Below, piece after piece: positions 10,720 through 56,343 of a stretch of DNA of 64,000 nucleotides. The stretch's first letter is position 1. Each line of letters opens with the position of its first letter. Below the pieces are notes generated by a model that was not told where the DNA came from, searched no databases, and saw nothing but the letters and a program-made list of their open reading frames with translations. Origin of the DNA: Myxococcales bacterium (GTDB lineage: Bacteria; Myxococcota_A; Polyangia; Nannocystales; Nannocystaceae); the NCBI GenBank assembly GCA_020633295.1, contig JACKDW010000006.1, forward strand, positions 334,181 to 398,180. Direction: 5' to 3'. A program made the position numbers and the translations under genes.

Positions 10720-11679
10720 TCAGGCGCGCCACGGCGACGGCGCGTCCGCGGGCAGCAGCCCGACCTCGCGACCGCGGCGCAGCAGCTCGACGATCGCGGC
10801 GCGCCCCTCGGCGCCCAGCGACGACGAGTGCTCGTTGACGTAGAGCGCGATGTGCTGGCGACAGACCTCGGGGTCCATCTCCTGCGCGTGCGCGCGGATC
10901 ATCTCGGCGGGCGCCGAGGGGTTCGCCCACGCGTGCTCGATCGAGCGCCGCAGGCCGTCCTCGACGCGGTGAGTTGTCTCAGAGGACAGATCGCGTGAGG
11001 CCGCGATGATCCCCAGCGGCAGCGGCAGCCCGGTGTCGCGCTCCCACAGCGCGCCGAGGTCGGCGAGGAGCTCGAGCCCGAAGCTCGGGTACGTGAAGCG
11101 GCTCTCGTGGATGATGACGCCGGCGTCGCAGCGCCCGTCGGCGACCGCCGGCATGATCTCGTCGAAGCGCATGGGCACCACCGTCTCGGGGGAGAGCGCG
11201 CCCGGCGGGGCGAAGATCCGCAGCAGCAGGTGCGCCGTCGTCAGCGATCCGGGGATCGCCACGCGCCGACCGGCGAGCGCCGCCAGCGAGCCGAGGCCCG
11301 CGCCCCGGCGCTGAACGACGAGCGGACCGCAGCCGCGCCCGAGCGCCGCGCCGCTGTCGAGCGCGCCGTAGCGCCCCGTCAGCAGCCCGAACACGTGCAC
11401 GCTCAGCTTCGTGATCGGCAGCGGCGCGCCGGCGCCCGGCAGCGCCAGCGCCCGGCGGTTGAGCGCCTCGATGTCCTCCATCACCGACGCGAACCGGAGC
11501 CCCGGCACGGGCACGGCGCCCGAGACGAGCCCGTGGAACATGAAGGTGTCATTGGGACAGGGCGAGAAGCCCAGCTCGAGCTCGCCTGCATCGCGTGCGC
11601 GCGTCACGAGCGTGGGGCTACCTCGAGCGCGTCGGCGCGGCCAGCCGCGCGACCGCGCGTCGCGCCTCGCCCCACCCAC
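10720..11679 (-). CDS. mqnD: Menaquinone biosynthesis via futalosine, MqnA/MqnD family (probably 1,4-dihydroxy-6-naphthoate synthase)
   Basis: LELGFSPCPNDTFMFHGLV N-terminal motif typical of the VitK2_biosynth (MqnA/MqnD) family. Adjacent to mqnB as in Streptomyces. Confidence 0.65.
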   Translation of the reverse strand: MGGARRDARSRGWPRRRARGSPTLVTRARDAGELELGFSPCPNDTFMFHGLVSGAVPVPGLRFASVMEDIEALNRRALALPGAGAPLPITKLSVHVFGLLTGRYGALDSGAALGRGCGPLVVQRRGAGLGSLAALAGRRVAIPGSLTTAHLLLRIFAPPGALSPETVVPMRFDEIMPAVADGRCDAGVIIHESRFTYPSFGLELLADLGALWERDTGLPLPLGIIAASRDLSSETTHRVEDGLRRSIEHAWANPSAPAEMIRAHAQEMDPEVCRQHIALYVNEHSSSLGAEGRAAIVELLRRGREVGLLPADAPSPWRA

Positions 11680-12366
11680 TCAGACGTCGCCGGGTCCGGG
11701 GCTGCGGTGGGGGCGGAGGACGCCCTGCGTCACGAGCTCCACCACCGCGTCCTGCACGGCCGCGACCGCGCGCTTGAGATCCCAACCTCCGCGGGCGCGA
11801 TCGCCGGTCCGGTTGCTCACCGCGCGCAGCTGCACCATCGGGATTCCGCGGCGCTGGCACACGTAGGCGACGGCGGCGCCCTCCATGCTCTCGACCCGCG
11901 CCCCCGCCCGCGTCGCCAGGGCGCGCGAGCGCCCGTCGGTGCCGCTGCAGGTGCTGACCGTCGCGCCGTCGACCGCCGGCACGCCGAGCGCGGCGGCGGC
12001 GGCGACCGTCAATTCAGGATCCGCCGTGAACGGGCCGGTGACCGGGAAGCCGAGCCGCGCGAGCTCGGTGAAGCCGCGCTCGTGCTCGACCCCCTCATCC
12101 GCGAGCTGATCGCGACCCACGAGGCACACGTCGCCGACCTCGAGGGCCGGCCCGTCGCCGCCGTGGGCCGGCGGGTACACGCCGCAGATCCCGAACAGCA
12201 CCACCGCCGCGGGACGTCGCGCGGCGAGCTGCTCCACGAGGCCCGCGCACGCGGCGACCTTGCCCACGCCGATCGCCGCGAGCGCGACGTCTCCGCCGCG
12301 CGCCCAGGCCCGGAGCCGACGCGCGAGCCCCTGCCCCTCGACCTCCGCCGCGTGCACCAGCAGCAT
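11680..12366 (-). CDS. mqnB: Futalosine hydrolase (PNP_UDP_1 / MTA-SAH nucleosidase family)
   Basis: Nucleosidase motifs AIGVGKVAAC, VVLFGICG and SMEGAAVAYVC. Operon partner of the MqnA/D-family gene. Confidence 0.7.
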   Translation of the reverse strand: MLLVHAAEVEGQGLARRLRAWARGGDVALAAIGVGKVAACAGLVEQLAARRPAAVVLFGICGVYPPAHGGDGPALEVGDVCLVGRDQLADEGVEHERGFTELARLGFPVTGPFTADPELTVAAAAALGVPAVDGATVSTCSGTDGRSRALATRAGARVESMEGAAVAYVCQRRGIPMVQLRAVSNRTGDRARGGWDLKRAVAAVQDAVVELVTQGVLRPHRSPGPGDV

Positions 12367-12668
12367 CCCGCCCTACGTACCACGGGCGACTGTCGCGCGG
12401 CTCGACGTGAGGGTTACCACGCGCAGGGCGCAGTTGACCTCGCGGCGCGTGGCGAGCTCGCTGCGGGAGCGCTCGGACCCGGCGTCGAGGAGACGCCCGC
12501 AGGACCGCGCAAACGCTTTCGCGTTGGCTTGCACGGGCGCCTGCGATATTGAGGCAGCCGCGCAGGCCCCTCCGCCCCACCGCGGCGCGAGCCGCCTGAC
12601 GCCAGCATGAGCCGCTCGAATGCTGTTCGGCGGCATCCCGGGGTTCACGAGAGACGACCGCTGACACG

Positions 12669-13346
12669 ATGAACGACCGCAAGACCGCCGCCTTTTTTCG
12701 CGCCGAGGGGACCGTGCTCAAGCGCGGCGTGCTCGCGGCCTCGGCCTACCTCGCCGGCAACGCGCAGAAATTCGGTGAGCGCGCGCTCCGGCTCGGGTTC
12801 GTCGCCATGGCCGCGCCGCTGCACGGCCTGCTCGGGCAGAACGACCGCACGCTCGCGACGCGCGTCGCCAACCTCGCGTTCCGCGGGATGACCGAGGACC
12901 GCATCGCCGAGCTCAGCGAGGAGTACGCCCGCGACATCCTCCAGCACAACATCCTCGACCAGGGCGTCGAGCTGATGAAGCGAGCGCGCCGCGAGGGCCA
13001 CCGCGTCGTGCTGCTCTCGGACAACATCCGCCTGATCATGGAGCCGCTGCTGCCGCACCTGCGGCTCGTCGACGAGCTGGTCTGCAACACGCTCGAGTTC
13101 AGAGGCGGCGAGGCGACGGGCAAGCTCCAGGATCCAGTGATCGGCGGCCACGGGTGGAAGCCGTGGCTCGAGCGCTACGCGGCCGAGCATGATCTCGACC
13201 TGTCCCAGAGCGTCGCCTACGGCGCGCACGGGCCCGATCTTCTGCTGCTCTCGACCATCGGGCGCCCGTGCGCGGTCAACCCGGACTACACGCTGCGTCG
13301 CGCCGCGCGCGAAGCTGACTGGCCGGTGATCGAGTACCGCGAGTAG
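12669..13346 (+). CDS. HAD-superfamily subfamily IB hydrolase (SerB/phosphatase-like); first gene of the lipid locus
   Basis: Haloacid dehalogenase-like layout with the motif-I aspartates early in the N-terminus (MNDRKTAAFFRAEGTV, atypically spaced). VVLLSDN is motif II. C-terminal GxHGPD-like motif. 29 nt upstream of the reductase gene. Confidence 0.65.
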   Translation: MNDRKTAAFFRAEGTVLKRGVLAASAYLAGNAQKFGERALRLGFVAMAAPLHGLLGQNDRTLATRVANLAFRGMTEDRIAELSEEYARDILQHNILDQGVELMKRARREGHRVVLLSDNIRLIMEPLLPHLRLVDELVCNTLEFRGGEATGKLQDPVIGGHGWKPWLERYAAEHDLDLSQSVAYGAHGPDLLLLSTIGRPCAVNPDYTLRRAAREADWPVIEYRE

Positions 13347-13375
13347 GCGGTCGACAGCTCCCACGGGGTGAATCC

Positions 13376-15073
13376 ATGGCGAACCCAATCTCGATCCGTC
13401 GCACTTACGCCGGCCGTCACGTGCTGCTGACGGGCGCGTCCGGCTTCCTCGGCAAGGTCTGGCTCGTGATGATGCTCGACCTCGTGCCCGAGATCGGCCG
13501 GGTCTACGTGATCCTGCGCAAGAAGGCGCTGCAGCCGGCGCGCGAGCGGTTTGAGAAGATCGTCGCGAGCTCGCCCGCGTTCGCGCCGCTGCACGATCGC
13601 TACGGCGCCGACCTCGGCCGCTTCCTCGTCGAGCGCGTCGAGCTCGTCGACGGCGACCTCGCCGAGCCCGACCTCGGCCTCGACCCGGCGGTCGCGCGCC
13701 AGCTCGAGCGCGACGTCGACCTCGTCATCCACTGCGCCGGCCTCGTCGACTTCGATCCCGACATCCGCGACGCGCTCACGACCAACGTCGACGGCACCGA
13801 GCACATCGCCAACTTCGTCGAGCGCAGCGATCACGCGGCGCTGCTGCACATCTCGACCTGCTACGTCAGCGGCACGCGCAACGGCGAGATCCCCGAGCAG
13901 CTGATCCCGGACTACGCGCCCGACGGGCACCCCTTCGACACCGAGCTCGAGCGCCGCGACGCCCGGGCCTCGATCGAGCGGATCCTCGCCGACCACGAGG
14001 GCGACGAGAAGGAGACCGAGCTGCACAAGCAGGCGCTCCAGCAGATCCGCGACCGCGGGCTCAACCCCAACAACTCGATGCTGCTGCGCAACATCACGCG
14101 CCGGCTCAAGCGCCAGTCGATCAAGAACGCGATGATCGAGGAGGGCCAGCGGCGCGCGTACAAGCGCGGCTGGCCCAACATCTACACCTACTCGAAGAGC
14201 ATGGCCGAGTCCCTGCTGATCGCGCGCAAGGACCGGATCCCGCGGATGTCGATCCTGCGCCCGGCGATCGTCGAGAGCTCGATGAGCTACCCGTTCCCGG
14301 GCTGGAACCAGGGCTTTAACACCTCGGGGCCGCTCTCGTACGTGCTCGGCACCTGGTTCCGCCACCTGCCCGCGCGCAACAACAACCCCTTCGACGTGAT
14401 CCCGGTCGACTACGTCGCGCGCGCCATCACGATCGCCGGCGCCGCGCTGCTCGAGGGCTGCGCCGCGCCCGTCTACCAGTGCGGGACGTCGGACATCAAC
14501 CGCCTGACGGTCGAGCGCGCCTGCGAGCTGACCGCGCTCGCGCACCGTCGACACCTGCGCGATCGCGGCTCGACGCCGATCGAGCGCGTGCTGCTCTCGC
14601 GCTGGGACGCGGTCGCCAGCGACCCCGAGCACCTGCTCTCGACCGAGAACATCAGCTCGGTCGCCGACGGCTTCGCCAAGCTCATGCGCGGGCTGCCGAA
14701 GCGGTGGCCGACCGGGCTGCATCGCGGCGCCGAGCGCTGGGCGAAGAAAGCGGACAGCGTGCGCGACAAGCTCAACACGATCGACCGCATGCTCACGCTC
14801 TACCTGCCCTTCATCTACGAGAACCACTTCGTGTTCCACTCGAAGGCGCTGCGCGAGCACGAGATCGAGGAGCCCGAGTTCGTCGTCGACACCACCGACA
14901 TCGACTGGCGCGTCTACTGGATCGGCATCCACATGCCCGGCCTGCGCAAGTGGTGCTACCCGCTGTTCGAGGGCAAGACGCCGGAGAAGTACGTGCCCAA
15001 GATCCCGTTCTCGCTCCCCCAGCAGCCAGCCCAGGCGCCGAGCGGCGCGGGGCTGCGCGGAGAGGCCCGCTGA
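13376..15073 (+). CDS. Fatty acyl-CoA/ACP reductase (NAD_binding_4 plus C-terminal sterile/FAR_C domain), alcohol-forming FAR-like
   Basis: VLLTGASGFLGKVWLVMML Rossmann motif. YTYSKSMAESL (YxxxK). C-terminal ~150 aa resembles the FAR male-sterility C-domain. Confidence 0.8.
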   Translation: MANPISIRRTYAGRHVLLTGASGFLGKVWLVMMLDLVPEIGRVYVILRKKALQPARERFEKIVASSPAFAPLHDRYGADLGRFLVERVELVDGDLAEPDLGLDPAVARQLERDVDLVIHCAGLVDFDPDIRDALTTNVDGTEHIANFVERSDHAALLHISTCYVSGTRNGEIPEQLIPDYAPDGHPFDTELERRDARASIERILADHEGDEKETELHKQALQQIRDRGLNPNNSMLLRNITRRLKRQSIKNAMIEEGQRRAYKRGWPNIYTYSKSMAESLLIARKDRIPRMSILRPAIVESSMSYPFPGWNQGFNTSGPLSYVLGTWFRHLPARNNNPFDVIPVDYVARAITIAGAALLEGCAAPVYQCGTSDINRLTVERACELTALAHRRHLRDRGSTPIERVLLSRWDAVASDPEHLLSTENISSVADGFAKLMRGLPKRWPTGLHRGAERWAKKADSVRDKLNTIDRMLTLYLPFIYENHFVFHSKALREHEIEEPEFVVDTTDIDWRVYWIGIHMPGLRKWCYPLFEGKTPEKYVPKIPFSLPQQPAQAPSGAGLRGEAR

Positions 15074-16218
15074 TGACGATCTTCTTGACTGGCAGCAACG
15101 GCTACCTCGGCTCCTACGTCGCCCACGAGCTGCTGCGGCGCGACCCGAACACGCGGCTCGCGCTGCTCGTGCGCGCCAAGAGCCCCGCGCACGCCGAGCA
15201 GCGCCTGTGGCAGGCGTGGCAGCTGCACATGGAGTTCGAGCCGTTCATCGACCTCGTGCGCTCGCGCTGCGACATCTACCTCGGCGATCTCACGGCGCCG
15301 GAGCTCGGCCTCGAGGCGAGCGCGCGCGACCGCCTGATCAAGAGCATGAGCTCGGTGCTGCACGTCGCCGCGTCGCTCAACCGCAAGTCGTCCAAGGCGT
15401 GCTTTAACGTCAACCTGCGCGGCACCCTCTCGGTCATCAAGCTCGCGCGCGCGGCCGCCGATCACCACGGCCTGCGGCGCTTCAGCGACATCTCGACCAC
15501 CGCGGTCGCCGGCCACCGCCAGAGCGAGCTCGTCGCCGAGCACGACATGATCGACTGGTCGCGCAGCGACTACGACCCCTACGCGCGGACCAAGAAGTTC
15601 TGCGAGCACATGATCCACGAGCTGCTGCCGGACGTGCGCTGCACCGTGTTCCGCCCCAGCACCGTGCTCGGCGACAGCCGCTTCCCCGAGACCACGCAGT
15701 TCGACATGACGCGCGCGTTCGTCACGCTCGTCAAGATGCCCGTGCTGCCGCTCGCCGCCGACTGGCGCCACGACGTCGTGCCCGCCGACTACGTCTGCGA
15801 CGGCATCGTCACCGTCCACCAGAGCGACGCGCCCGCGCACGACAGCTACAACCTCAGCGCCGGCGACGCGTCGCCCGACTACCAGACGATCATCGACACG
15901 CTCGTCGCCGCCGGGCTCCCGCGCCGGCGCTTCGCGCCCTGGCTCGCCAAGCCCTTCGAGCTCACGGTCGAGGGGCTGATGGCGACCCCGCGCGGCTGGG
16001 GCGTCTCGCTGCCGGCCTCGCTGATGAAGGTGTTCTGGCCCTACCTGACCTTTAATACAGTGTTCGACAACAGCCGGGTCGTCGCGGCGCTCGGGGGCAG
16101 GCGCCCCGCGCCCTTCACCGACTACGCCTACGGGCTGTTCCGCTTCGCCAGCGAGGGCAACTTCACGTACCCGCACAAGCCCTGGCCCGAGGCCGTCAGC
16201 CCGCGGAAGGTCGCATGA
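15073..16218 (+). CDS. NAD-dependent reductase (NAD_binding_4 / thioester-reductase-like SDR), second reductase
   Basis: IFLTGSNGYLGSYVAHELL Rossmann motif. YARTKKFCEHM (YxxxK). Start ATG overlaps the upstream stop (TGATG). Confidence 0.7.
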   Translation: MTIFLTGSNGYLGSYVAHELLRRDPNTRLALLVRAKSPAHAEQRLWQAWQLHMEFEPFIDLVRSRCDIYLGDLTAPELGLEASARDRLIKSMSSVLHVAASLNRKSSKACFNVNLRGTLSVIKLARAAADHHGLRRFSDISTTAVAGHRQSELVAEHDMIDWSRSDYDPYARTKKFCEHMIHELLPDVRCTVFRPSTVLGDSRFPETTQFDMTRAFVTLVKMPVLPLAADWRHDVVPADYVCDGIVTVHQSDAPAHDSYNLSAGDASPDYQTIIDTLVAAGLPRRRFAPWLAKPFELTVEGLMATPRGWGVSLPASLMKVFWPYLTFNTVFDNSRVVAALGGRRPAPFTDYAYGLFRFASEGNFTYPHKPWPEAVSPRKVA

Positions 16219-17711
16219 CAACATCCAACGAAGTCCCGCGCCCGCGCCGGAAGCGACGCAGGCGCGGCCTGTTTGACTCCCTCAAGGAGGCGCTCGATCC
16301 CGATCGCGCGCTCATGGCGAGCGTCGACGCGCTGATCGAGGCGGTCGCGGTCAAGCACGCGCTCAACGTCGACCAGGAGCGCTGGGCGCCCGGCAAGCCG
16401 CTGAAGCTGCTGCTCACGGGGCACGTCGGCACGCGCAACACCGGCGCCGACGTGCGCGTCGGCGAGATGATCCGGCAGATGCGTCACGTCATCGGCGACG
16501 ACGACCTGCAGCTGACGATCAGCACCTCGGACCCGAGGTGGTCGAGCGGCTACTTCCGCTCGGTCCACCAGGTGCTCCTGCCCCAGGTGTTCCCGCCGTT
16601 TCTGTACCGCGAGTGCCCCAAGCACCACGGCGTGATCGCGTGCGAGGGCTCGATGTTCAAGTCGAAGTTCGCCAGCGCGCTGACCTGCTTCATGGCGGGC
16701 TCGCTGGGGATGGCCGCGGCCGAGCGCAAGCTCGGCGTCGGCTACGGCGCCGAGGCCGGGAGCATGACGCCGGCGCTGCGCAGCTTCGTCAAGCGCCACT
16801 GCAAGGACTCGCTGGTGATGTGCCGCAACCTGCCGTCGCGCGACGTGCTCGGCAAGCTCGGCGTCCGCACCACGCACGGCGCCGACACGGCCTGGACCTT
16901 CGAGCCGGCGCCGCCCGCCGTCGGCCAGAAGCTGCTGCGCGAGGCCGGCTGGGACGGCGAGAAGAAGGTCCTGGCGATCGCGCCGATCAACCCGTTCTGG
17001 TGGCCGGTCAAGCCCGACCTCGTCAAGGCGGCCGCGCGCACCTTCGGCGGGCAGTACCGCGTCGAGCACTACAAGTCGATCTACTTCCACGCGGCCTCGT
17101 CGAAGATCGACCAGGCGCTCGACGACTACCTCCAGGGCATCGCCGACGCGGTCAACGCGTTCTGCCGCGACCGCGACGTGTTCGTGGTGCTCATCGGCAT
17201 GGAGAAGCTCGACCGCCGCGCGGCCGAGCGCCTCAACCCGCTGCTCGATCGCCCGGCGCCGCTGTTCATCAGCGACACCTACGACATGTTCGAGATGATC
17301 AGCGTGCTGCGCAGCTGCGCCATGCTCGTCAGCTCGCGCTTCCACGCGATCGTCTGCTCGATGCCCGGCTTCGTCGCGTCGGCCGGCGTGACGATGGACG
17401 AGCGGATCCGCAACATCATGAACGACCGCGGCACGCCCGACCTGTTCCTCGAGGTCGACGACCCCAACCTCGGCGACAAGCTGCTGCAGATCCTCCACAA
17501 GCTGCACGACGAGCGCGACGCGCTGCGCGACACCATCGGCAAGGCGATCCCCGCGCAGCTCGAGCTCATGGGTCAGATGGGCCTCGACTTCATGGACGAG
17601 GTGTGCCGCGTCTACCCCGAGTTCCCGCGCAAGCAGCTGCCGCGCACGTGGGAGGCCCACCTCCCGCCGATGCCCCCGAACGTGCAGGGCATCCTGGAGC
17701 GCTACGGATGA
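16215..17711 (+). CDS. Polysaccharide pyruvyl transferase-family (PF04230-like) protein
   Basis: C-terminal motif LVSSRFHAIVCSM resembles the pyruvyl-transferase RxHAxI signature. ATGA overlaps at both ends. Function in lipid context unknown. Confidence 0.5.
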   Translation: MTTSNEVPRPRRKRRRRGLFDSLKEALDPDRALMASVDALIEAVAVKHALNVDQERWAPGKPLKLLLTGHVGTRNTGADVRVGEMIRQMRHVIGDDDLQLTISTSDPRWSSGYFRSVHQVLLPQVFPPFLYRECPKHHGVIACEGSMFKSKFASALTCFMAGSLGMAAAERKLGVGYGAEAGSMTPALRSFVKRHCKDSLVMCRNLPSRDVLGKLGVRTTHGADTAWTFEPAPPAVGQKLLREAGWDGEKKVLAIAPINPFWWPVKPDLVKAAARTFGGQYRVEHYKSIYFHAASSKIDQALDDYLQGIADAVNAFCRDRDVFVVLIGMEKLDRRAAERLNPLLDRPAPLFISDTYDMFEMISVLRSCAMLVSSRFHAIVCSMPGFVASAGVTMDERIRNIMNDRGTPDLFLEVDDPNLGDKLLQILHKLHDERDALRDTIGKAIPAQLELMGQMGLDFMDEVCRVYPEFPRKQLPRTWEAHLPPMPPNVQGILERYG

Positions 17712-18517
17712 CCGAGGACGCGAGGATCGGCGACGTGCTCGGGTGGACCTTCCAAGACGGCGTGTACGAGCTGACGCTCGACCAGGCGCCGTGCAACGAG
17801 ATCGGCGCGCGGATGCTCGAGGCGCTCGAGGGCTTCCTCGACAGCATCACGCCGAACCTCGACAGCGCCCACGCGCTCATCATCCGCAGCGCGCTGCGCA
17901 GCGGCTTCTGCGCTGGCGCCGACCTGCGCGCGCTCTACCGCGGCCTGCAGGAGGCCGAGTCGGCGAGCGGCCGCCGCCAGCTCGCGCAGTTCATCGACCG
18001 CATCCACGCGGTCATGGATCGCCTCGACACGCTCCCGCTCGTCACCGTCGGCGTGATCAACGGCATCTGCTTCGGCGGCGGCCTCGAGCTCGCGCTGACC
18101 TGCGACATCCTGATCGCCGAGAAGTCCGCGCGCTTCGCCTTCCCCGAGCTGCGGCTCGGCATCGTGCCTGGCTTCGGGGGCATCCCCCGGCTCAAGCGCG
18201 AGGTCGGCAACGCGGTCGTCCGCGACCTGCTGCTGACCGGCCGCAGCGTCAACGCCCGCAAGGCGCAGGCGGTCGGCCTCGTGAGCCAGCTGGTGCCCGT
18301 GGGCGAGGGCCTCACGGCCGCGCGCGCGCTGGCCAAGCAGGCCGCGAAGTTCGACCCGACCGCGCGCGTCGCCGCCAAGCGCTTCATCAAGCCGCTCCCA
18401 CGCGCGGAGCTGCACGAGGAGAAGCGCCTGTTCCTCGAGCTGGCGAGCCGGCCCACGCTCATGGAGGCGCTCAAGCGCTTCGTCGAGAGCGAGGACGTCC
18501 GCCCCTACCTGCCCTGA
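17708..18517 (+). CDS. Enoyl-CoA hydratase/isomerase (crotonase fold)
   Basis: FCAGADL oxyanion motif, GICFGGGLELALTCD, and FPELRLGIVPGFGG. Confidence 0.85.
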   Translation: MTEDARIGDVLGWTFQDGVYELTLDQAPCNEIGARMLEALEGFLDSITPNLDSAHALIIRSALRSGFCAGADLRALYRGLQEAESASGRRQLAQFIDRIHAVMDRLDTLPLVTVGVINGICFGGGLELALTCDILIAEKSARFAFPELRLGIVPGFGGIPRLKREVGNAVVRDLLLTGRSVNARKAQAVGLVSQLVPVGEGLTAARALAKQAAKFDPTARVAAKRFIKPLPRAELHEEKRLFLELASRPTLMEALKRFVESEDVRPYLP

Positions 18518-18539
18518 TCAAGCCCCCGCGAGCAGCACC

Positions 18540-18767
18540 ATGACCGCAACAAAACTGATCGAGCTGGCCGCCCGTCGCTTCGGCGCCGACCCCCGCCAGC
18601 TCAAGCCCGCAGACGACATGTTCGAGACGCTCGGCATCGACAGCTTCCAGGCCGCCGACCTGATGACCGAGGTCGAGCTCGAGTTCGACGTCGAGATCCC
18701 CGACTACGAGCTGCAGGGCATCAAGACGTTCCAGGCGCTGGCAGACAAGATCGACGCGAGGCGCTGA
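18540..18767 (+). CDS. Acyl carrier protein (dedicated, non-FAS)
   Basis: 75-aa four-helix ACP-like protein with LGIDSFQAADL (phosphopantetheine-attachment Ser in a DSF variant of DSL). Confidence 0.7.
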   Translation: MTATKLIELAARRFGADPRQLKPADDMFETLGIDSFQAADLMTEVELEFDVEIPDYELQGIKTFQALADKIDARR

Positions 18768-20503
18768 TGCTCGACTTCTCCCGCCTGCCGTCCATCGGCG
18801 CCGCCCTGCGCGACTCGACCGTCGCGTACAAGAGCCACGTCGCGCTGATCGAGGCCGACCGTCACCGCGAGAACGGGCGCTGGACCTACCGCGAATTTCG
18901 CGACGAGTCCGAGCGCTTCGCCGCGCTGCTCGCCCGCCGCGGCGTCGAGCCGGGCGATCGCTGCGCGATCCTGATGCAGAACCAGGCCAAGTGGCTGATC
19001 AGCGCCACGGGCGCGATGTGGACGGGCTGCGCGCTCGTGCCGCTCGACTACAAGCTGACCGCGCGCGAGCAGCTCGAGCTGATCGGCCTGTGCCGCCCGC
19101 GGGTGCTCGTCACCGAGTACCACAGCTGGCATCAGCTCTGCCGCGAGGAGCAGCGCCACGTCCTCGAGCGCACGCTCGTGCTCGTCACCGAGCCGCCGCG
19201 CGACGCCGAGCTCGGGCCCGCCAGCGAGTGGCGATTGCCGGAGCGCGCAGACGACTTTCGCTACCACGAGCCGGCGCGCGACGACGTCGCGTGCATCGTC
19301 TACTCCTCCGGCACCGGCGGGCGCCCCAAGGGCTGCCAGCTGACCCACGAGGCCTACCTGTGTCAGGCCGAGGTGCTCGGCAACATGTACCCGATGGACG
19401 AAGGCGACCGGTTCTTCTCGGTCCTGCCGACCAACCACGCCATCGACTTCATGTGCGGCTTCCTGCTCCCGCTGCTCATGGGCGGCGCGGTCGTCCACCA
19501 GCGTACGCTGCGCTCGGAGTTCCTCGCGTCGACCATGCAGCGCTACGGCGTCACCCAGATCGCGCTGGTGCCTCGCCTGCTCAAGGCCATGAAGGAGAAG
19601 ATCGAGGAGAACCTCGACGACCTCCCGAAGTGGCAGCGCGCGGTCGTCGACGGGCTGATCGAGGCCAACGTCCGCGCGACCCGGCGCGCGCCCAACCACG
19701 CGCTCTCGCGCCGCCTGCTGCGGCCGATCCACGACCGCTTCGGCGGCAAGCTGCGCCTCATCGTCACCGGCGGCGCGTTCTGTGAGCGCGAGACCGCGGA
19801 GTTCTTCAACCGCCTCGGCTTCCCGCTCGCGATCGGCTACGGCCTGACCGAGGCCTGCACGGTGCTCACGCTCAACGACCTGAAGCCGTTCCGGGCCGAC
19901 AGCGTGGGCGCGCCCGTCGAGGGCGTCGAGCTCGAGCTGCGCGACAAGAACGCGGCCGGCGTCGGCGAGGTCTGGGTGCGCGCGCCGACCGTCATGAAGG
20001 GCTACCTCGATCAGCCCGAGCTGACCGAGGAGGCGATCGTCGACGGTTGGCTGCGGACCGGCGATCTCGGGGTCATCGACGCCGCCGGGCACCTCAAGCT
20101 CGTCGGGCGGGCCAAGAACATGATCGTCACCTCGGGCGGCAAGAACGTGTACCCCGAGGACATCGAGGCCGCGTTCACCGAGCTCGACGGCTGCGAGGAG
20201 CTGTGCGTGTTCGCGGCCAACTACATCTGGCCGACCGGCTCGCTCACCGGCGAGCAGCTCATCGTCGTCCTGCGCCGCAAGGCCCCCGGCCCGCGCGAGA
20301 CCGGCGAGTCGCTCGACGAGGCCATGATCGCCGATCTCCAGCGCCGCAACCGGCGGCTCTCGGACTTCAAGCGCCTGTCCGCCTTCGTGCGCTGGGACGA
20401 GGAGTTCCCCCGCACCGCCTCGCTCAAGATCAAGCGTCAGGCGCTGGCGGTGCAGCTGCGGGAGCAGCTCACGCGCGAGGAGGCGCTCCAGGAGCTCCGC
20501 TGA
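18767..20503 (+). CDS. AMP-dependent synthetase/ligase (fatty acyl-AMP / acyl-ACP or acyl-CoA ligase)
   Basis: AMP-binding signature IVYSSGTGGRPKG and YGLTE; TGDLG. Start ATG overlaps the ACP stop (TGATG). Confidence 0.85.
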   Translation: MLDFSRLPSIGAALRDSTVAYKSHVALIEADRHRENGRWTYREFRDESERFAALLARRGVEPGDRCAILMQNQAKWLISATGAMWTGCALVPLDYKLTAREQLELIGLCRPRVLVTEYHSWHQLCREEQRHVLERTLVLVTEPPRDAELGPASEWRLPERADDFRYHEPARDDVACIVYSSGTGGRPKGCQLTHEAYLCQAEVLGNMYPMDEGDRFFSVLPTNHAIDFMCGFLLPLLMGGAVVHQRTLRSEFLASTMQRYGVTQIALVPRLLKAMKEKIEENLDDLPKWQRAVVDGLIEANVRATRRAPNHALSRRLLRPIHDRFGGKLRLIVTGGAFCERETAEFFNRLGFPLAIGYGLTEACTVLTLNDLKPFRADSVGAPVEGVELELRDKNAAGVGEVWVRAPTVMKGYLDQPELTEEAIVDGWLRTGDLGVIDAAGHLKLVGRAKNMIVTSGGKNVYPEDIEAAFTELDGCEELCVFAANYIWPTGSLTGEQLIVVLRRKAPGPRETGESLDEAMIADLQRRNRRLSDFKRLSAFVRWDEEFPRTASLKIKRQALAVQLREQLTREEALQELR

Positions 20504-20597
20504 GGACAGCCGCCCCGATGCCCGCCCGGCGCGGTACCCTGGGCGCGCCACGGACGACCGCGTCTGCACGTGGTCGGCGCCACGAGGACACACGACG

Positions 20598-21539
20598 ATG
20601 GCCAACGACACCACCCGCGGAGACCGACGCTACGTCGCCATCTTCAACCCGGCCGCCGGCGGCGGGCGCTGCGGCGCGCGGGCGCCCGCGGCGATCGAGC
20701 GGCTGCGCGGCGCCGGGCTCGAGATCGAGGTGCGCGAGACCGCGGCCGCCGGCGACGGCGAGCGCATCACCCGTGAGGCGGTCCAGTCCGGCGCCCGGAA
20801 CTTCATCGCCATCGGCGGCGACGGCACCACCTACGAGATCATCAACGGGCTGTTCTCGCCGGCGTCCGGCGACGAGCTGCCGCCGCCCATCGCCGAGCCC
20901 GTCAGCGTCGGCTTCCTGCCCATGGGCACCGGCAACTCGTTCCTGCGCGACTTCAGCGACCGCGGCGCGGACTACTCGATCGACGCGCTCGCCGCGGGCG
21001 CGCGGCGCCCCTGCGACGTCATCCGCGTCCGCCACACCCGCGGCGTCCTGCACTTCATCAACATCTTCAGCATCGGCTTCGTCGCCGACGTCGCCGCGCT
21101 GCGCAACAACCGGTTCTCCGCGCTCGGCGAGTTCGGCTACATCGTCGCCGTCGTCGCCAAGGTCGCCGCGCTCGCGCCCACGCGCTTCCCGATGGCGCTC
21201 GACGACGGCCCGCGCGATCGCGCGCCGGTCACCTTCATCTCGATCAACAACAGCAAGTTCACCGGCGGCAAGATGATGATGGCGCCCGGCGCCGAGACCG
21301 GCGACGGCAAGCTCGACGTCATCCGCGTCGGCGAGATGGGCCGGCTGTCGCTGCTGGCGACCTTCCCCAAGATCTTCAAGGGCACGCACCTCGAGCACCC
21401 GGCCGTCAGCGCCGTGCAGGCCCGCGAGATCCACTTCGAACTCGAGGGCGAGCTCGACGTCATGATCGACGGCGAGATGCTGCGAATTCAGCCGACGCAC
21501 CTCGAGGTCGTCCCGGAGGCCGTGAATGTCATCGCCTGA
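20598..21539 (+). CDS. Lipid kinase, DAGK catalytic domain (YegS/sphingosine kinase-like)
   Basis: YVAIFNPAAGGG...NFIAIGGDGTTYEIINGL matches the DAGK_cat GGDG motif. Confidence 0.75.
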   Translation: MANDTTRGDRRYVAIFNPAAGGGRCGARAPAAIERLRGAGLEIEVRETAAAGDGERITREAVQSGARNFIAIGGDGTTYEIINGLFSPASGDELPPPIAEPVSVGFLPMGTGNSFLRDFSDRGADYSIDALAAGARRPCDVIRVRHTRGVLHFINIFSIGFVADVAALRNNRFSALGEFGYIVAVVAKVAALAPTRFPMALDDGPRDRAPVTFISINNSKFTGGKMMMAPGAETGDGKLDVIRVGEMGRLSLLATFPKIFKGTHLEHPAVSAVQAREIHFELEGELDVMIDGEMLRIQPTHLEVVPEAVNVIA

Positions 21540-22470
21540 ACCCGCTCCCAACCCGCCCAAGGGCCAGCCAGAGGACAAGCTCGAGGACAAGCTCGAGGAC
21601 AAGCTCGAGGACAAGCCCGCGCGAAGCCGCCCGGCGCCGCTGCCCCTGCGCGCGCTCAAGGGCGCGGTCGAGATCGCGCACTCGACCGCGGTCTGGTCCG
21701 CGTCCTTCGCCGTGATGAGCGGCGTCGTCGTGTTCGGCGGCGGGCTCAGCCCCGTCATCCCGTTCCGCAAGACCCACACCTATATCGGCGGGCCCGGGAT
21801 GGGTCTGTGCCTGCGGCTCGCCGCGCGCACGCTCGACATCACCTACCACGAGGACTTCGATCCCGAGCGTCGCGGCGTGTTCATGCAGAACCACGTCAAC
21901 CTCATGGACGCCCACGCCGCCTGCGCCGCGATCCCGCACGCGTTCTGCGGGCTGATGAACGCCTGGCAGTTCAAGATCCCCGTCTACGGGCAGATCATGC
22001 GCCTCGCCGACGGCATCGCGGTGCACCCCGGCAAGGCCGGTCGCTTCAAGCAGGTCGCCCAGGACGCGCAGGATCGCGCGGCCAAGGGCATCTCGATCCT
22101 CGCCTTCCCCGAGGCCCACCGCACGCGCACCGGCGACGTCCAGCCGTTCAAGCGCGGCGTGTTCTTCATGGCCCGCGACGCCGGCCTGCCGATCATCCCG
22201 CTGTGCACGCACGGGATGTTCAACCTGATGCGCAAGGGCTCGATGCGGATCCGCCGCTCGCACGTCAAGATCTTCGTCGGCCCGCAGATCGAGACCAAGG
22301 GGCTGAACAAGGGGCAGCTCTCCGAGCTGATCACGCGCACCCACGCGGTCGTCGCGAGCTTCTCGGAGACCGGACAGGTGCCCCAGGACGCCGTGCGTCG
22401 CCTCCAGCGGCTCCGCGAGGACATCCCCGGGGGCGAGTCGTCGCGCGACGGAGACCGCGACGTCGGCTAG
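21526..22470 (+). CDS. 1-acyl-sn-glycerol-3-phosphate acyltransferase family (PlsC/AGPAT), with N-terminal (EDKL)x4 repeat
   Basis: HxxxxD motif HVNLMD. FPEAHRT (motif III, FPEGTR-like). Overlaps the kinase gene by 14 nt. Confidence 0.75.
   Translation: MSSPEPAPNPPKGQPEDKLEDKLEDKLEDKPARSRPAPLPLRALKGAVEIAHSTAVWSASFAVMSGVVVFGGGLSPVIPFRKTHTYIGGPGMGLCLRLAARTLDITYHEDFDPERRGVFMQNHVNLMDAHAACAAIPHAFCGLMNAWQFKIPVYGQIMRLADGIAVHPGKAGRFKQVAQDAQDRAAKGISILAFPEAHRTRTGDVQPFKRGVFFMARDAGLPIIPLCTHGMFNLMRKGSMRIRRSHVKIFVGPQIETKGLNKGQLSELITRTHAVVASFSETGQVPQDAVRRLQRLREDIPGGESSRDGDRDVG
21571..21618. repeat. 12-bp tandem repeat gaggacaagctc x4 (encodes EDKL x4)
   Basis: Read directly from the sequence. Confidence 0.8.
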
Positions 22471-22865: not shown

Positions 22866-23225
22866 CCGGCCCCCTCCAATCGAAGATACCACCGGGCTCG
22901 CGCGTGAAGCCAGCGACCCGGGGTCGCGCGCGTGAGAACCCGCGGCCCGCCTCGCCGCGCGCGATGAAACCCGACCGCGCGCGGCCTCGCCTGTCCCGCG
23001 CGCGACGCCGTGTCGCGCCGCGCTGGGCGGAGACGCCCGCTCGCCCGCGCACGCGCGTCGCGAGCTCGCCGATCGCTCGCCGTCACCGTCGCCCTCTCGT
23101 CGTCACGACGCGCGCGGTCGCGCCTCGAGCCCGTGAAACCGGGCGGTTTTCGCCTCAGTCATATCGATGTCGCGCGGGTGGTACACGGGATCCCGAGGCA
23201 CACACCGCGCCGACGGAGAGGACCG

Positions 23226-24119
<894 letters not shown>

Positions 24120-24135
24120 ACCGGAGGACACGTCG

Positions 24136-27100
24136 ATGTTCCGCGAGTTCTTCCGCTTCGAAAGCGGGTTCCGGTTCCGGAGCCTGATGTTCTGGATCTT
24201 CTCCCTGCTGTTCTTCGGCCTCACGCTGCTGGTGACCGGCTGGGACGAGACCTTCCTGCCGGGCGCCGGCGGCAAGATCGCGCGCAACGCCCCGTTCGCG
24301 ATCTCGATCTTCTTCATTATTATCAGCCAGCTCGGGATGTTCGTCGCGGCGGCCTTCGTCGCCAACTCGGTCAGCCGCGACGACGCGCTCAAGACCGACT
24401 CGCTGTTCTTCTCGAGCCCCGTCAGCCGCCACGGCTACCTCGCCGGGCGCTTCCTGGGCTCGCTCTTGCCGGCGATCGTGATCGTCGTGTTCGCGGCGCT
24501 GGGCCACATGCTCGGCTCGATCGGCCCGCTGCACCCGCCCGAGAAGCTCGTCCCGATCACGCTCGGGCCCTACGCGGCCGCGATCGGGCTGTTCGTGATC
24601 CCCAACTTCTTCGTCATGGGCGCGCTCGCGTTCACGCTCGCTACCCTGACGCGCCGGGTGCTCAACGCGTACATCGGGCTCATCGTCGTGTTCGTGCTCG
24701 TGTTCCTGGCCGACAGCGCGCTCAGCGATCTCGACTACCGGACCACGCTCGCGCTCATCGATCCCTTCGGCGGCACCGCGTGGAGCTACGTCACCAAGTA
24801 CTGGACGGTCGCCGAGAAGAACACGCAGGTCGTGCTGCTCGACAGCTACCTGCTGCTCAACCGCGCGATCTGGATCGGCGTCGGCGTCGCGCTGCTCGCG
24901 TTCACGCACGCGCGCTTCCGCATGCAGATCGCCGGCGGCGGCAAGCGCCGCAAGCCGCCCGCGCCCGAGGTCACCGAGGCGCCGAGCCGCGCGGCCAACG
25001 TGCCGGTGCCGAAGGCCGCGCTCGACTTCTCGGCGCGCGCCCAGCTCGCGCAGCTGCTGAGCCAGACCTGGCTCGAGCTGCGCTGGGTCACGCGCCGCAT
25101 CGGCTTCGTCGTGCTCGTCGGCTTCGGCATGTTCAACGTGCTCGCCGGCGTCTACCTGCAGAGCCGTCAGGCCTACGCCACGCCGATCTGGCCGGTCACG
25201 CGCTTCGTGCTCGAGACCGTCAGCGGCGGCTTCAGCGTGTTCCTGCTCGCGATCATCACGGTCTACTCGGGGCAGATGGTCTGGCGCGAGCGCGAGGCCA
25301 AGATGGGCCAGATCTTCGACGCGACGCCGATCCCGACCTGGATCCCGCTCGCGTCCAAGGTCTTCGCGCTGATGCTCGCGGTCGTCGTGCTGCTGCTCGC
25401 GAGCATGGTCGCGGGCGTCTCCTACCAGCTCGCCAGCGGCTTCCTCGAGGTCGAGTTCGGGCTGTTCCTCAAGGGCCTGCTGCTCATCCAGTTCCCCGGC
25501 TGGGCCGAGCTGGTCGTGCTCGCGTTCGCCGTCCAGGTGCTGGTCAACCACAAGTACCTCGGGTTCGGCGTGATGGTCCTGTACTACATCGCGCTGGCGA
25601 TCCTCCCGAACGTCGGCGTCGAGCACAACCTGCTGCTGTTCGGGCAGACGCCGCCGGCGCCGTACTCGGACATGAACGACTACGGGCACTTCCTGACGCC
25701 GTTCTTCTGGTTCAACCTCTACTGGCTGTGCGCGATCGCGATCCTCGGGCTCGTCTCGAGCCTGTTCTGGGTGCGCGGCACCGACACGCGCTTCCGCCTG
25801 CGCGCCCGCGAGGCCCGGCGCCGCGTGACGCCGGCCCACAGCGTGTTCCTGATGACGATGGTCACCTGCTTCATCGGCAGCGGCGCGTACATCTACTACA
25901 ACACCAACGTCCTCAACACGTTCAAGACCAGCGACCAGCAGGAGCAGGAGCAGGTCGACTTCGAGCGCAAGTACAAGAAGTACGAGGACGCCCCGCAGCC
26001 GCGCCTGACCGCGGTCAAGCTCGACGTCGACATCTACCCGGACCAGCGCTACGTGCACGCGCGCGGCACGATGACGCTGGTCAACAAGACCGACGCGCCG
26101 ATCGCCGAGCTCCACCTGATCATCGACCCGGAGATCGAGCTGCTCTCGCTCAGCGTGCCCGAGTCCGCGCGCACGCTCCACGACGAGGCGCTCGGCTTCT
26201 CGATCTACGCGCTGCCCGAGCCGCTCGCGCCCGGGCAGACGCTGCCGCTCGAGTTCGAGACCAAGCGTCACAACCGCGGCTTCACCAACGGGCGCGGCAA
26301 CATCAACGTCGTGCACAACGGCACCTTCTTCCACGGCGGCGAGATCGTGCCGAGCGTCGGCTACAACCGCGACTTCGAGATCGCCGACGACGAGAAGCGC
26401 CGCGAGTATGACCTCCCCGAGCGCCCGCGCATGCTCCCGGTCGACGACATGGCCGCGCGGATGAACACCTACATCTCGACGGAGGCCGACTGGATCGACT
26501 TCGAGACCACGGTCAGCACCGTCGCCGACCAGGTCGCGATCGCGCCGGGCTACCTGCAGAAAGAGTGGACCGAGGACGGGCGGCGCTACTTCCACTACAA
26601 GATGGACGCGCCGATCCTGAACCTCTACGGGTTCCTCTCAGCGCGCTTCACCGTCGTGCGCGACAGCTGGAAGGACGTCTCGATCGAGGTCTACCACCAC
26701 GCGCCGCACGACTACAACGTCGAGAAGATGATCCAGTCGGTCAAGGACTCGCTCGAGTACTACACCGCGAACTTCAGCCCCTACCAGCACCGGCAGGTGC
26801 GGATCATCGAGTTCCCGCGCTACCGCAACTTCGCGCAGTCGCTGCCCAACACGATCCCCTACTCCGAGGGCATCGGCTTCATCGCCAAGCTCGTCGACCC
26901 CGACGACATCGACTACGTGTACTACGTCACCGCCCACGAGATCGCGCACCAGTGGTGGGCGCACCAGGTCATCGGCGGCAACGTCCAGGGCAGCACGCTG
27001 CTGGTCGAGAGCATGGCGCAGTACTCCGCGCTGATGGTGATGGAGCAGAAGTACGGGCGCGACAAGATGAAGCGCTTCCTGCGTCACGAGCTCGACTCGT

Positions 27101-30579: not shown

Positions 30580-30909
30580 CCCGGGTTGACTACCCTCGCG
30601 GCCGCGGCTGGCCTCTTCGACAGACCGTGCCCAGGCTACAGCCTAGCGAATGACCGAGGTCGTTTATGCACAACGCATGACTTTCTGGCCACGTAGCTCG
30701 CGACGCGCAGGTTCGACGTCGACCTCTCGTCGGCGCGCGCTCGTTCGCTTGCCGCTACATCGACCGCGCTGGGGCGTAGCGCCACAGCGCGCCGAGGTCA
30801 CGACGCGCGCGGTGCCTGTGTTATGATCTCGTCGCTCACATTCGCGCGCTGAGTCGCCTGGTCCTGCGAGCAGGCGTGTGGAACCGTGATCTGAGCCGGC
30901 GCGGCGCGA

Positions 30910-34857
<3,948 letters not shown>

Positions 34858-38838: not shown

Positions 38839-38913
38839 GGTGGGTGATGCTCGCTGTGGGAGTCGTCGCGCGGGGCGATGGTTCGGGGCGGAGATGCGGG
38901 GGCCGCGACCGGC

Positions 38914-39894: not shown

Positions 39895-39933
39895 GATGAC
39901 GTGGCTCCTTAGCTCTCGACGGCTCCCACAGGC

Positions 39934-40959: not shown

Positions 40960-41168
40960 GGGCGGTCGGCAAAATAGCACCGGCCCGACACGCGTGGAAC
41001 CCTCGCGCACGCGCGGCGCCGAGCGCTTCTGAGCCGGCGCGCACGCGCCTGCACACGCGCGTGACGACGCGAGGCGAGCCAGCGCGCGAGGAACACCGGC
41101 TCCGTCGGCGGTGACCTCGCGGCGAGCTCCACCGTGCGCGGACGCGCTGGGGTATACCTCGCGCCATC

Positions 41169-47293: not shown

Positions 47294-47448
47294 CGCGGAT
47301 TCGAGCTTAGGAGCCCGACGCGCGCGGTACAAGCCCACAGGCGCGCGGACGCGGCCGCCGCGACGGAGACGCCGCCGTGGACTCCGCAGCGCGGTGACCG
47401 TCGACGACCGCCGGCGCGCGACCGCAGTATGATGGCGACCGCTCCACC

Positions 47449-56178: not shown

Positions 56179-56343
56179 GACGATGCGTCAGGTTGTGCCA
56201 TACCCGCCCGGATCTGGCCACGCTCGCCAGCGGCGCTGGGTCACACGGGCGGCCGGCCGGGCGGCCGCAACGCGGAGAGTCTCTGTCCACGACGCCTCGC
56301 GCAGCCCTTGCGCGGCTCCAGCCCGAGCTTATTGTGAACAGCG

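Follow-up and report, generated by a model that had tools for sequence, protein, structure and literature searches.

In Myxococcus xanthus, the ether lipid operon elbA-E (MXAN_1531-1527) encodes a HAD protein (ElbB), a multidomain protein (ElbD) with a FAR-like reductase and ACS, ACP, and AGPAT domains, two NAD-dependent epimerase-type reductases (ElbE and ElbA), and a protein of unknown function (ElbC); the ether-bond-forming step of this pathway has no assigned enzyme (PMC9131029, PMC13012113, PMC9426513). Ether lipids are also made by a route comprising FAR, GNPAT, AGPS, and alkyl-DHAP reductase, with salvage by an alkylglycerol kinase (PMC9131029). Pyruvyl transferases of family PF04230, such as CsaB, WcaK, and Pvg1p, belong to a different setting: all characterized enzymes of the family act on saccharides, and in CsaB the residues R148, R306, H308, and K328 are required for PEP binding or activity (PMC10435577). 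No report tying pyruvyl transferases to lipids was found in the literature searched.

The window, the whole 64,000-nucleotide stretch of DNA from a Myxococcales bacterium that was analyzed here, contains a PF04230 gene among lipid genes. As the first-pass annotation had proposed, three genes (FAR, TR, and PvT) occupy positions 13376-17711 of the forward strand. They are the center of a self-contained lipid assembly operon of nine genes (12669-22470), in the following order:

12669..13346, forward strand: HAD-IB family hydrolase/phosphatase (HAD), 225 aa, opening the operon (PF12710, E 4.9e-22)
13376..15073, forward strand: fatty acyl reductase (FAR), 565 aa, with an NAD_binding_4 Rossmann domain followed by a 'sterile' C-terminal domain that is divergent (PF07993, E 6.9e-55)
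15073..16218, forward strand: stand-alone thioester-reductase-like SDR (TR), 381 aa (PF07993, E 2.5e-43)
16215..17711, forward strand: PvT, 498 aa, a divergent member of the polysaccharide pyruvyl transferase family with a GT-B fold and with its PEP-binding residues intact (PF04230, E 8.6e-10)
17708..18517, forward strand: crotonase-family enoyl-thioester hydratase (ECH), 269 aa (PF00378, E 3.6e-39)
18540..18767, forward strand: acyl carrier protein (ACP), 75 aa (PF00550, E 5.7e-12)
18767..20503, forward strand: adenylate-forming acyl ligase, 578 aa, immediately 3' of ACP (PF00501, E 3.5e-73)
20598..21539, forward strand: YegS/DAGK-family lipid kinase, 313 aa (PF00781, PF19279; TIGR00147, 140.9 bits)
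21526..22470, forward strand: PlsC-type (lyso)phosphatidate acyltransferase (PlsC), 314 aa, closing the operon (PF01553, E 6.4e-18)

Starts within the operon are overlapping or tightly spaced. Read directly, the FAR stop and TR start form TGATG and therefore overlap by 1 nt, as had been noted previously, and the TR stop overlaps the PvT start as ATGA, an overlap that recurs between PvT and ECH. PvT is an integral part of an acyl-reduction/lipid operon, coupled in translation to both thioester reductases and to the crotonase. No glycosyltransferase, flippase, or polymerase genes were found in the nine genes and no polysaccharide genes nearby, and the AGPS flavoenzyme was absent from the operon and from all window ORFs scanned. 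The earlier description of a lipid operon stood for the three coupled genes, but the unit is larger. The placement of a pyruvyl-transferase-like enzyme inside an acyl-reduction operon was likewise upheld, whereas ECH, ACP, the ligase, the kinase, PlsC, the gene order shared across phyla, and the likeness to elb had been missed.

Judged by its sequence, PvT truly belongs to the family of PEP-dependent pyruvyl transferases, although it has diverged strongly, and it has kept the PEP-binding residues. The first-pass annotation had called this protein PF04230-like and proposed a structural comparison with CsaB/WcaK; the Pfam gathering score (39.4 bits; cutoff, 25.3), a profile match to E. coli WcaK (97.6%), a two-domain GT-B-like fold, and the PEP residues all agree with that assignment. 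The motif SRFHAIV singled out earlier is present, within SSRFHAIV at residues 373-380. R204, R375-x-H377, and R397 are invariant in 34 family sequences (25-70% identity) and are the counterparts of CsaB R148, R306, H308, and K328, a mapping made via the WcaK alignment and motif spacing rather than by direct alignment with CsaB. PvT shares with CsaB, WcaK, and Pvg1p the R...R-x-H...K/R PEP-binding set, together with a conserved G-x-D-x-A-W motif. It differs from them in a family-specific insertion (residues 257-292, PINPFWWPVKPD...), in its acceptor-side residues, and in its context of lipid rather than polysaccharide biosynthesis, and its length exceeds that of CsaB (396 aa) by ∼100 residues (WcaK, ∼426 aa).

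At least 593 genome stretches share this gene order; they belong to Myxococcota (among them Nannocystis exedens DSM 71), Acidobacteriota, and Bdellovibrionota. Neighborhoods were counted in the best 80 related loci, many of them from Blastocatellia and none from Myxococcus or its close relatives; 60 had enough upstream and 48 enough downstream sequence. On the 5' side of PvT, TR was present in 53/60 loci, FAR in 52/60, and HAD in 51/60. On the 3' side, ECH was present in 40/48 loci, the ligase in 36, the lipid kinase in 32, and PlsC in 23 (tblastn threshold, 1e-8). Because TR, FAR, HAD, and ECH flank PvT in most related loci, the arrangement is not due to chance. In other genomes, PvT is found fused to the FAR C-domain (P0133/L091) and to an AMP-binding adenylating enzyme (P0180). 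In most genomes an AMP-binding gene for a second ligase (ACS2) lies directly 3' of PvT, its start codon overlapping the PvT stop; the window lacks this gene. One variant (L092) has PvT, a ligase, and TR but no crotonase.

The closest solved relative of FAR, which carries GASGFLG and YTYSK motifs, is a fatty acyl-CoA reductase (PDB 7eoz; E 9e-38). Its earlier designation as a full FAR holds for the NAD_binding_4 domain and less firmly for the 'sterile' C-domain, which was weakly detected (PF03015, E 0.031; 14.9 bits compared to a 35.4-bit cutoff). The region is supported by homology to the N-terminal part of P0133 (29% identity; E 3e-14), whose own Sterile match (34.8 bits) is itself slightly below that cutoff. 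TR proved to be a second Rossmann thioester-reductase-like protein, as predicted. Its best solved relatives are the reductase domains of MxaA (4u7w), the Mtb NRP (NRPS) R-domain (4dqv), and CAR (5msc), and its score against the TIGR01746 thioester reductase model was 123 bits, below the 213-bit cutoff.

Among the other products, HAD is of the same family type as ElbB and matched the HAD-IB models TIGR01490 and TIGR01488 below their cutoffs. ECH has both catalytic Glu residues and the motifs GGGLELAL and FPELRLG; its best PDB match, 3-hydroxypropionyl-CoA dehydratase (5zai; E 1.4e-29), interconverts acryloyl-CoA and 3-hydroxypropionyl-CoA, and several other hydratases score about equally. In ACP, the Ser of the LGIDSF motif is placed where phosphopantetheine would be expected to attach. 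The lipid kinase exceeded the TIGR00147 cutoff (118.65 bits), and PlsC was below that of TIGR00530.

These features suggest that PvT most likely modifies a fatty alcohol with the C3 unit of PEP. We give roughly 0.5 as the probability that PvT uses PEP in a transfer reaction whose acceptor is a lipid alcohol made by a reductase. The acceptor is probably FAR derived because P0133/L091 carries a fusion of PvT with the FAR C-domain, and the product is probably a carboxylic acid because an AMP-binding gene overlaps the 3' end of PvT in most genomes and is fused to it in P0180. With an adenylating enzyme adjacent or fused to PvT, a crotonase with both Glu residues next, and genes for a thioester reductase and a lipid kinase in the operon, the context points to formation of a carboxylate from PEP, followed by its thioesterification, hydration, and reduction. 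The first-pass annotation had offered a head-group or ketal modification, or a repurposed fold; of these, head-group decoration fits this context less well than does attachment to a fatty alcohol through an ether or enolpyruvyl bond.

A possible route can be written in full. FAR would make a fatty alcohol, which PvT would join to C2 of PEP with departure of phosphate; since only a single hydroxyl would be available, no ketal would be expected but instead an enolpyruvyl ether (2-alkoxyacrylate). The new carboxylate would be thioesterified by the ligase and ACP (a step for which ACS2 also adjoins PvT in most other genomes), the crotonase would add water across the acrylate double bond, yielding a 2-O-alkyl-glyceroyl thioester, and TR would reduce this to an alkylglycerol. 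The two reductases would match the two thioester substrates of the route. Phosphorylation by the lipid kinase, a dedicated enzyme that a backbone assembled in unphosphorylated form would call for, would yield alkyl-glycerol phosphate. Acylation by PlsC would give an ether analogue of phosphatidic acid, which the HAD phosphatase could convert back to a neutral lipid. That every one of these steps is correct seems rather doubtful. The absence of ACS2 from the window, the absence of crotonase from L092, and the near-equal scores of other hydratases for ECH count against the route, as does the predicted sn-2 (prochiral C2) alkyl ether, the characterized myxobacterial ether lipids being sn-1 (PMC9131029).

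The proposed PvT step would be analogous to formation of the lactyl ether of muramic acid by MurA and MurB, in that an alcohol is joined to C2 of PEP, phosphate leaves, and the enol ether is processed by a second enzyme. MurA has a catalytic cysteine and a fold unrelated to that of PvT. Thioesterification and hydration would take the place of the flavin-dependent reduction, and the enolpyruvyl transfer chemistry of MurA has been discussed (PMC10435577). With the FAR/GNPAT/AGPS/alkyl-DHAP reductase route and alkylglycerol kinase salvage, the operon shares the supply of fatty alcohol by a FAR, together with an acyltransferase of the PlsC family, an NAD(P)H reductase, and a kinase step of the alkylglycerol type (PMC9131029). 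Unlike in the eukaryotic and myxobacterial AGPS route, the functional place of AGPS is taken by PvT, the ligase, and the crotonase.

It is possible, as a tentative reading that overlaps with the preferred one, that the operon is the Polyangia/Acidobacteria version of elbA-E, with each ElbD domain encoded by a gene of its own and PvT corresponding to ElbC. Both operons have a HAD protein, a FAR-like reductase, an adenylating enzyme, ACP, PlsC/AGPAT, and an NAD-dependent SDR. Split elbD variants and elb-like clusters adjoining DAG kinase and acyltransferase genes are on record (preprint 10.64898/2026.06.23.733905). Published reports place elb in Myxococcota and Acidobacteria, in both of which the PvT operon occurs as well, and within the latter in subdivision 4; many PvT loci are from Blastocatellia. 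However, the order of genes and domains differs (ACP is 5' of the ligase, and four genes lie between the latter and the reductase), all activities are on separate genes, and a crotonase and a lipid kinase that are not in elbA-E are added around a central PF04230-type enzyme. The lack of Myxococcus among the best 80 loci also speaks against this identity, and the elb literature searched, from which ElbC is known by description only, makes no mention of a pyruvyl transferase domain.

An unlikely alternative is that a long-chain 1,3-diol (or a monoalkyl- or monoacyl-glycerol) is the product of the crotonase and reductases and that PvT closes a pyruvate ketal over its two hydroxyls, giving a carboxylated acidic lipid. 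CsaB and WcaK work on a sugar 4,6-diol, and the ketals made by characterized PF04230 enzymes bridge 1,3-related hydroxyls (PMC10435577). The PEP site of PvT is conserved, ECH and a thioester reductase could yield a 3-hydroxy aldehyde or 1,3-diol, and the adenylating enzyme beside PvT could activate the carboxylate of the ketal. However, there is no dehydrogenase to make the enoyl substrate of ECH, the lipid kinase, PlsC, and HAD are left without a clear role, and the tight order of PvT, ligase, and ECH points to ECH acting later than PvT, not earlier.

It is still less probable that PvT has lost PEP chemistry and serves as a GT-B-type glycosyl- or phospho-alcohol transferase adding a head group, or as a noncatalytic scaffold for the reductases. 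PvT does score far below the cutoffs of the CsaB and WcaK equivalog models, and many family members have no precomputed Pfam match, but exactly the PEP-binding residues of CsaB and Pvg1p are invariant down to 25% identity, and Pfam assigns PvT to PF04230 rather than to a glycosyltransferase family. That PvT pyruvylates a polysaccharide, as the saccharide substrates of its characterized relatives might imply, and merely sits among lipid genes is close to refuted by its flanks, conserved in several phyla, and its fusions, and is further contradicted by the ATGA overlaps on both sides and the lack of polysaccharide genes in the operon.

If the route from fatty alcohol and PEP to alkylglycerol is true, the PvT operon may represent an unrecognized way of making ether lipids.

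A co-directional run of nine genes, extending from position 12669 to position 22470 of the window (G+C content, ∼70%), was delineated by reading the DNA together with Pfam and NCBIfam scans.

Genes of the nine-gene operon (position in the window, strand, product, length)
12669-13346, +, HAD-IB hydrolase, 225 aa
13376-15073, +, fatty acyl reductase (FAR), 565 aa
15073-16218, +, stand-alone thioester-reductase-like SDR (TR), 381 aa
16215-17711, +, divergent PF04230 protein (PvT), 498 aa
17708-18517, +, crotonase (ECH), 269 aa
18540-18767, +, ACP, 75 aa
18767-20503, +, adenylating ligase, 578 aa
20598-21539, +, YegS/DAGK lipid kinase, 313 aa
21526-22470, +, PlsC acyltransferase, 314 aa

The first-pass annotation had drawn attention to the FAR, TR, and PvT genes, and the genes themselves, their coordinates, the 1-nt overlap between the reductase genes, and the SRFHAIV motif had all been read correctly. 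The FAR and TR genes overlap by one base (TGATG), and ATGA overlaps are present at both the TR/PvT and PvT/ECH junctions. The possibility that TR was a mis-called extension of FAR was considered and rejected. No glycosyltransferase, flippase, or polymerase was detected in the operon by Pfam scans, in which all eight neighbors of PvT were lipid or acyl enzymes. A promoter and terminator scan across the operon gave no informative signal.

Upstream of the operon, and divergent from it, are futalosine-type menaquinone genes (10720-12366, minus strand) encoding VitK2_biosynth (MqnA-like) and PNP_UDP_1 (MqnB-like) proteins; the 300-nt gap at 12367-12668 is likely a promoter region common to these genes and the lipid operon. 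Directly 3′ of the operon (23010-27729, plus strand) are an ABC ATPase gene and then a gene for a 1304-aa fusion of ABC-2 permease domains with an M1 peptidase domain. Other genes in the window encode a 1320-aa protein with Ser/Thr kinase, nSTAND1 NTPase, and FGE-sulfatase-like domains (30895-34857, plus strand) and a 989-aa radical SAM protein (Radical_SAM_N2, Radical_SAM, and DUF2344; 53218-56187, minus strand). A further lipid-related gene (44804-47722, minus strand) encodes a 972-aa protein with a neutral/alkaline ceramidase N-terminal domain (E = 2.4e-13). An operon for the E1-alpha, E1-beta, and E2 subunits of a 2-oxoacid dehydrogenase (37531-41166, minus strand) may bear on the chains used by the lipid operon; myxobacterial complexes of this kind provide primers for iso-branched fatty acids.

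The proposal that the 498-aa protein is PF04230-like was borne out. PvT matched PF04230 over residues 155 to 383 with 39.4 bits (gathering cutoff, 25.3 bits; E = 8.6e-10), and a profile (A2) built from 34 members of the PvT family, with 25 to 70% identity, aligned in hhalign with WcaK of Escherichia coli K-12 over 249 columns (probability, 97.6%; E = 4.4e-12). PvT has the two Rossmann domains of a GT-B-like fold. The R, R-x-H, and K of WcaK are matched in this alignment by R204, R375, H377, and R397 of PvT, and R204, a G-T-D-T-A-W motif, R375-x-H377, and R397 are invariant among the 34 family members. When PvT was mapped to CsaB, by motif rather than by direct alignment, these positions corresponded to the PEP-binding residues R148, R306, H308, and K328 of CsaB, which are equivalent to R217, R337, H339, and K361 of Pvg1p (PMC10435577). 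Activity of CsaB is lost in R148 and H308 mutants, K328R lowers kcat about eightfold, and R306 and K328 contact PEP in docking (PMC10435577). PvT scored far below the equivalog cutoffs for CsaB (TIGR03609, 51.5 versus 213.1 bits) and WcaK (TIGR04006, 19.0 versus 727.1 bits), and PDB sequence searches with the family profiles A1 and A2 returned nothing significant (Pvg1p, E = 1.6). Compared with WcaK, PvT carries an insertion that is rich in aromatic residues and specific to the family (residues 257 to 292, PINPFWWPVKPD...). Judged from these comparisons, PvT is a true but distant relative of the pyruvyl transferases in which the predicted PEP site has been kept. The family lies at the margin of the Pfam PF04230 model and is under-annotated; a sizeable share of clear PvT orthologs (>60% identical) have no precomputed PF04230 match and are named "hypothetical protein."

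FAR had been described as an NAD_binding_4 reductase with a sterile C-terminal domain. The first part of this description held firmly (PF07993, E = 6.9e-55; GASGFLG [GxxGxxG] and YTYSK [YxxxK] motifs; E = 9e-38 to the fatty acyl reductase 7eoz in the PDB); the Sterile domain was only weakly detected (PF03015, E = 0.031, 14.9 bits against a cutoff of 35.4 bits). The C-terminal region of FAR does, however, share homology (E = 3e-14) with the N terminus of the PvT homolog P0133, a Sterile-like region that itself falls slightly below the PF03015 cutoff (34.8 bits). TR scored below the cutoff of the thioester reductase model TIGR01746 (123.3 versus 213.35 bits, covering positions 1 to 283 of 371), contains a YARTK (YxxxK) motif, and has the reductase domains of MxaA, 4dqv, and CAR as its best solved relatives. 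ECH (PF00378, E = 3.6e-39) retains both catalytic glutamates (GGGLELAL and FPELRLG motifs); among solved structures, 3-hydroxypropionyl-CoA dehydratase ranks first, but the ranking does not discriminate among hydratases.

More than 7,000 PvT homologs were recovered in each protein search, and a library of representatives at 50% identity contained 719 clusters. When a single genome of each species was scanned, at least 593 stretches were recovered; the scan was seeded with the closer alignment A3, since A2, the diverse one, was too variable. Among the best 80 stretches are Nannocystis exedens DSM 71, N. pusilla, and Paraliomyxa miuraensis, as well as Polyangiales, Sandaracinaceae, Bradymonadia, Bdellovibrionota, and many Blastocatellia and Terriglobia; no Myxococcus locus was found among them. 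Protein searches for cultured ether-lipid producers, seeded with Blastocatellia and Terriglobales orthologs, returned uncultured MAGs only. A sequence identical to PvT is present on contigs of the uncultured Myxococcota genome GCA_020431325.1.

Gene order, as traced by tblastn with the window proteins, was nearly uniform across the best 80 loci, and the lipid/acyl context free of polysaccharide genes was found there as well. Neighbors were counted at loci with enough flanking sequence (60 upstream and 48 downstream).

Neighbors of PvT in related loci
TR, upstream, 53/60
FAR, upstream, 52/60
HAD, upstream, 51/60
ECH, downstream, 40/48
Ligase, downstream, 36/48
ACP, downstream, 34/48
Kinase, downstream, 32/48
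PlsC, downstream, 23/48

In most of the orthologous operons at loci L005-L084 (e.g., L007:11596-13086; 32 of the 48 loci counted), a second AMP-binding ligase of ∼555 aa with an AMP-binding_C_3 domain (ACS2) is encoded in the interval from PvT to ECH, where start and stop codons overlap. It is missing from about ten other loci and from the window, where the sole match was the main ligase.

Gene fusions were also found. In locus L091 (5754-11519; P0133), the FAR is split and its C-terminal domain is fused to PvT; this locus has no TR, a separate 355-aa Rossmann reductase precedes the fusion, and ECH, ACP, and ligase genes follow it. In L092 (553-9478; P0180), PvT is fused to an ACS2-type ligase and followed by TR, beyond which are an uncharacterized 240-aa protein, an SDR, and a 1093-aa enzyme with AMP-binding and NAD_binding_4 domains, without a crotonase. 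Distant PvT paralogs (28 to 29% identity) occur in unrelated contexts, and the one in Deltaproteobacteria is a stand-alone gene. Because relatives at ∼28% identity are found in such contexts, the lipid role is limited to the orthologous subfamily. In Massilia aurea (L085:10001-14595), a 28% identical paralog is translationally coupled to genes for a TPP-dependent enzyme, a DCC1-like thiol-disulfide oxidoreductase, and an AurF-like di-iron protein, which appear to make up a different, uncharacterized small-molecule cluster.

The coupling of PvT extends in both directions, to FAR on one side and, on the other, to enzymes of adenylating, crotonase, and thioester-reductase type. Formation of C-O-C bonds from PEP is the only known chemistry of the PF04230 family, and the operon carries exactly the accessory enzymes for processing a PEP-derived carboxylate. 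We put at about even odds (probability, ∼0.5) that PvT is a PEP-dependent transferase acting on the lipid alcohol made by the reductase. The first-pass interpretation was supported in part: the Pfam and WcaK matches and the synteny bear out a PF04230-like enzyme in an acyl-reduction operon, and the suggestion of a head-group or ketal modification, or a repurposed fold, can be sharpened towards a possible PEP-derived ether.

A possible route gives each gene of the operon a role. FAR would supply a mono-alcohol acceptor, and PvT would join this fatty alcohol to PEP with elimination of phosphate, by analogy with MurA-like chemistry, to give an enol ether, 2-alkoxyacrylate. Products derived from PEP would retain its carboxylate, which would account for the adenylating enzyme adjoining or fused to PvT. 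The ligase and ACP would convert the carboxylate to an α,β-unsaturated thioester, a crotonase substrate, hydration of which would yield a 2-O-alkyl-glyceroyl thioester that TR would reduce to an alkylglycerol. The two reductases would thus serve two thioesters, fatty acyl and alkoxy-hydroxypropanoyl. Since the alkylglycerol backbone would carry no phosphate, a dedicated lipid kinase would be required ahead of acylation by PlsC, accounting for a kinase that is unneeded in the glycerol-3-phosphate route. The full route from fatty alcohol and PEP to an acylated ether lipid is highly tentative. Against it are the lack of ACS2 in the window and of a crotonase in L092, and the predicted position of the ether at the central carbon, whereas the known myxobacterial ether lipids are sn-1 ethers (PMC9131029). 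It is likewise rather unlikely, if worth stating, that PvT forms ether bonds independently of oxygen and of AGPS (the flavoenzyme of the alternative ether-lipid route), with the PEP-derived unit becoming the glycerol backbone and the kinase and PlsC completing an ether phosphatidic acid.

The closest described system is the elbA-E ether-lipid operon of Myxococcus xanthus, in which ElbB is a HAD protein, ElbA and ElbE act as NAD-dependent reductases, ElbC has no known function, and ElbD combines reductase, adenylation, ACP, and AGPAT domains (PMC9131029, PMC13012113, PMC9426513). The pathway is genetically defined in Myxococcus, and its ether-forming step is unknown (PMC9131029). Split-elbD variants and clusters with neighboring DAG kinase and acyltransferase genes have been reported (10.64898/2026.06.23.733905), as has an elb cluster from subdivision-4 Acidobacteria (PMC10087280). 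The window operon shares the elb parts list, including a HAD-IB hydrolase and a stand-alone NAD_binding_4/Epimerase-type reductase like ElbB and ElbE (a match at the family level only). However, it differs in architecture and order and adds the crotonase, the kinase, and PvT. In place of the single multidomain ElbD it has four activities as separate genes, with ACP before the ligase, and a check of the large ORFs of the window gave none with an ElbD-like multidomain architecture. The operon is an elb-like, fatty-alcohol-based lipid operon centered on a lipid-associated PF04230 subfamily. Within the library searched, no paper linked a pyruvyl transferase to ether lipids or to Myxococcus lipid genes. 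It is possible, at less than even odds, that the operon is the form that elb takes in Polyangia and Acidobacteria, with PvT as the counterpart of ElbC, an explanation compatible with transfer from PEP to a lipid alcohol.

If PvT instead formed a pyruvate ketal, with a 1,3-diol lipid or a monoalkylglycerol as acceptor, the known chemistry of the PF04230 family would be preserved; this reading is distinctly unlikely and gives the kinase, PlsC, and HAD nothing to do. The ranking of folds favors PvT as a repurposed GT-B transferase or scaffold, which we regard as improbable given the invariant PEP residues. Chance proximity of PvT to lipid genes is effectively excluded by the overlaps, the synteny, and the fusions.

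How alkyl ether bonds are formed in aerobic bacteria other than AGPS users is an open question, and the biosynthesis of ether lipids and brGDGTs in Acidobacteria is unresolved (PMC10087280; PMC11868695). Among Myxococcota and Acidobacteriota from soils and aquatic habitats, the operon is very widely distributed. It provides a specific hypothesis on AGPS-independent ether-bond formation that can be put to experiment directly, since the cultured N. exedens DSM 71, N. pusilla, and P. miuraensis carry the operon. If PvT does form ether bonds without oxygen or AGPS and the PEP-derived unit does become the glycerol backbone, a glycerolipid would be built in a new way, from the lipid tail outward, with the ether at the central carbon. 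Such a position could explain why, in aerobic Acidobacteria, dialkyl glycerol ethers and branched tetraethers have ether bonds at sn-2. Should the details of the route prove incorrect, the PvT group would still be the first subfamily of PF04230 to be associated with the metabolism of lipids instead of polysaccharides.
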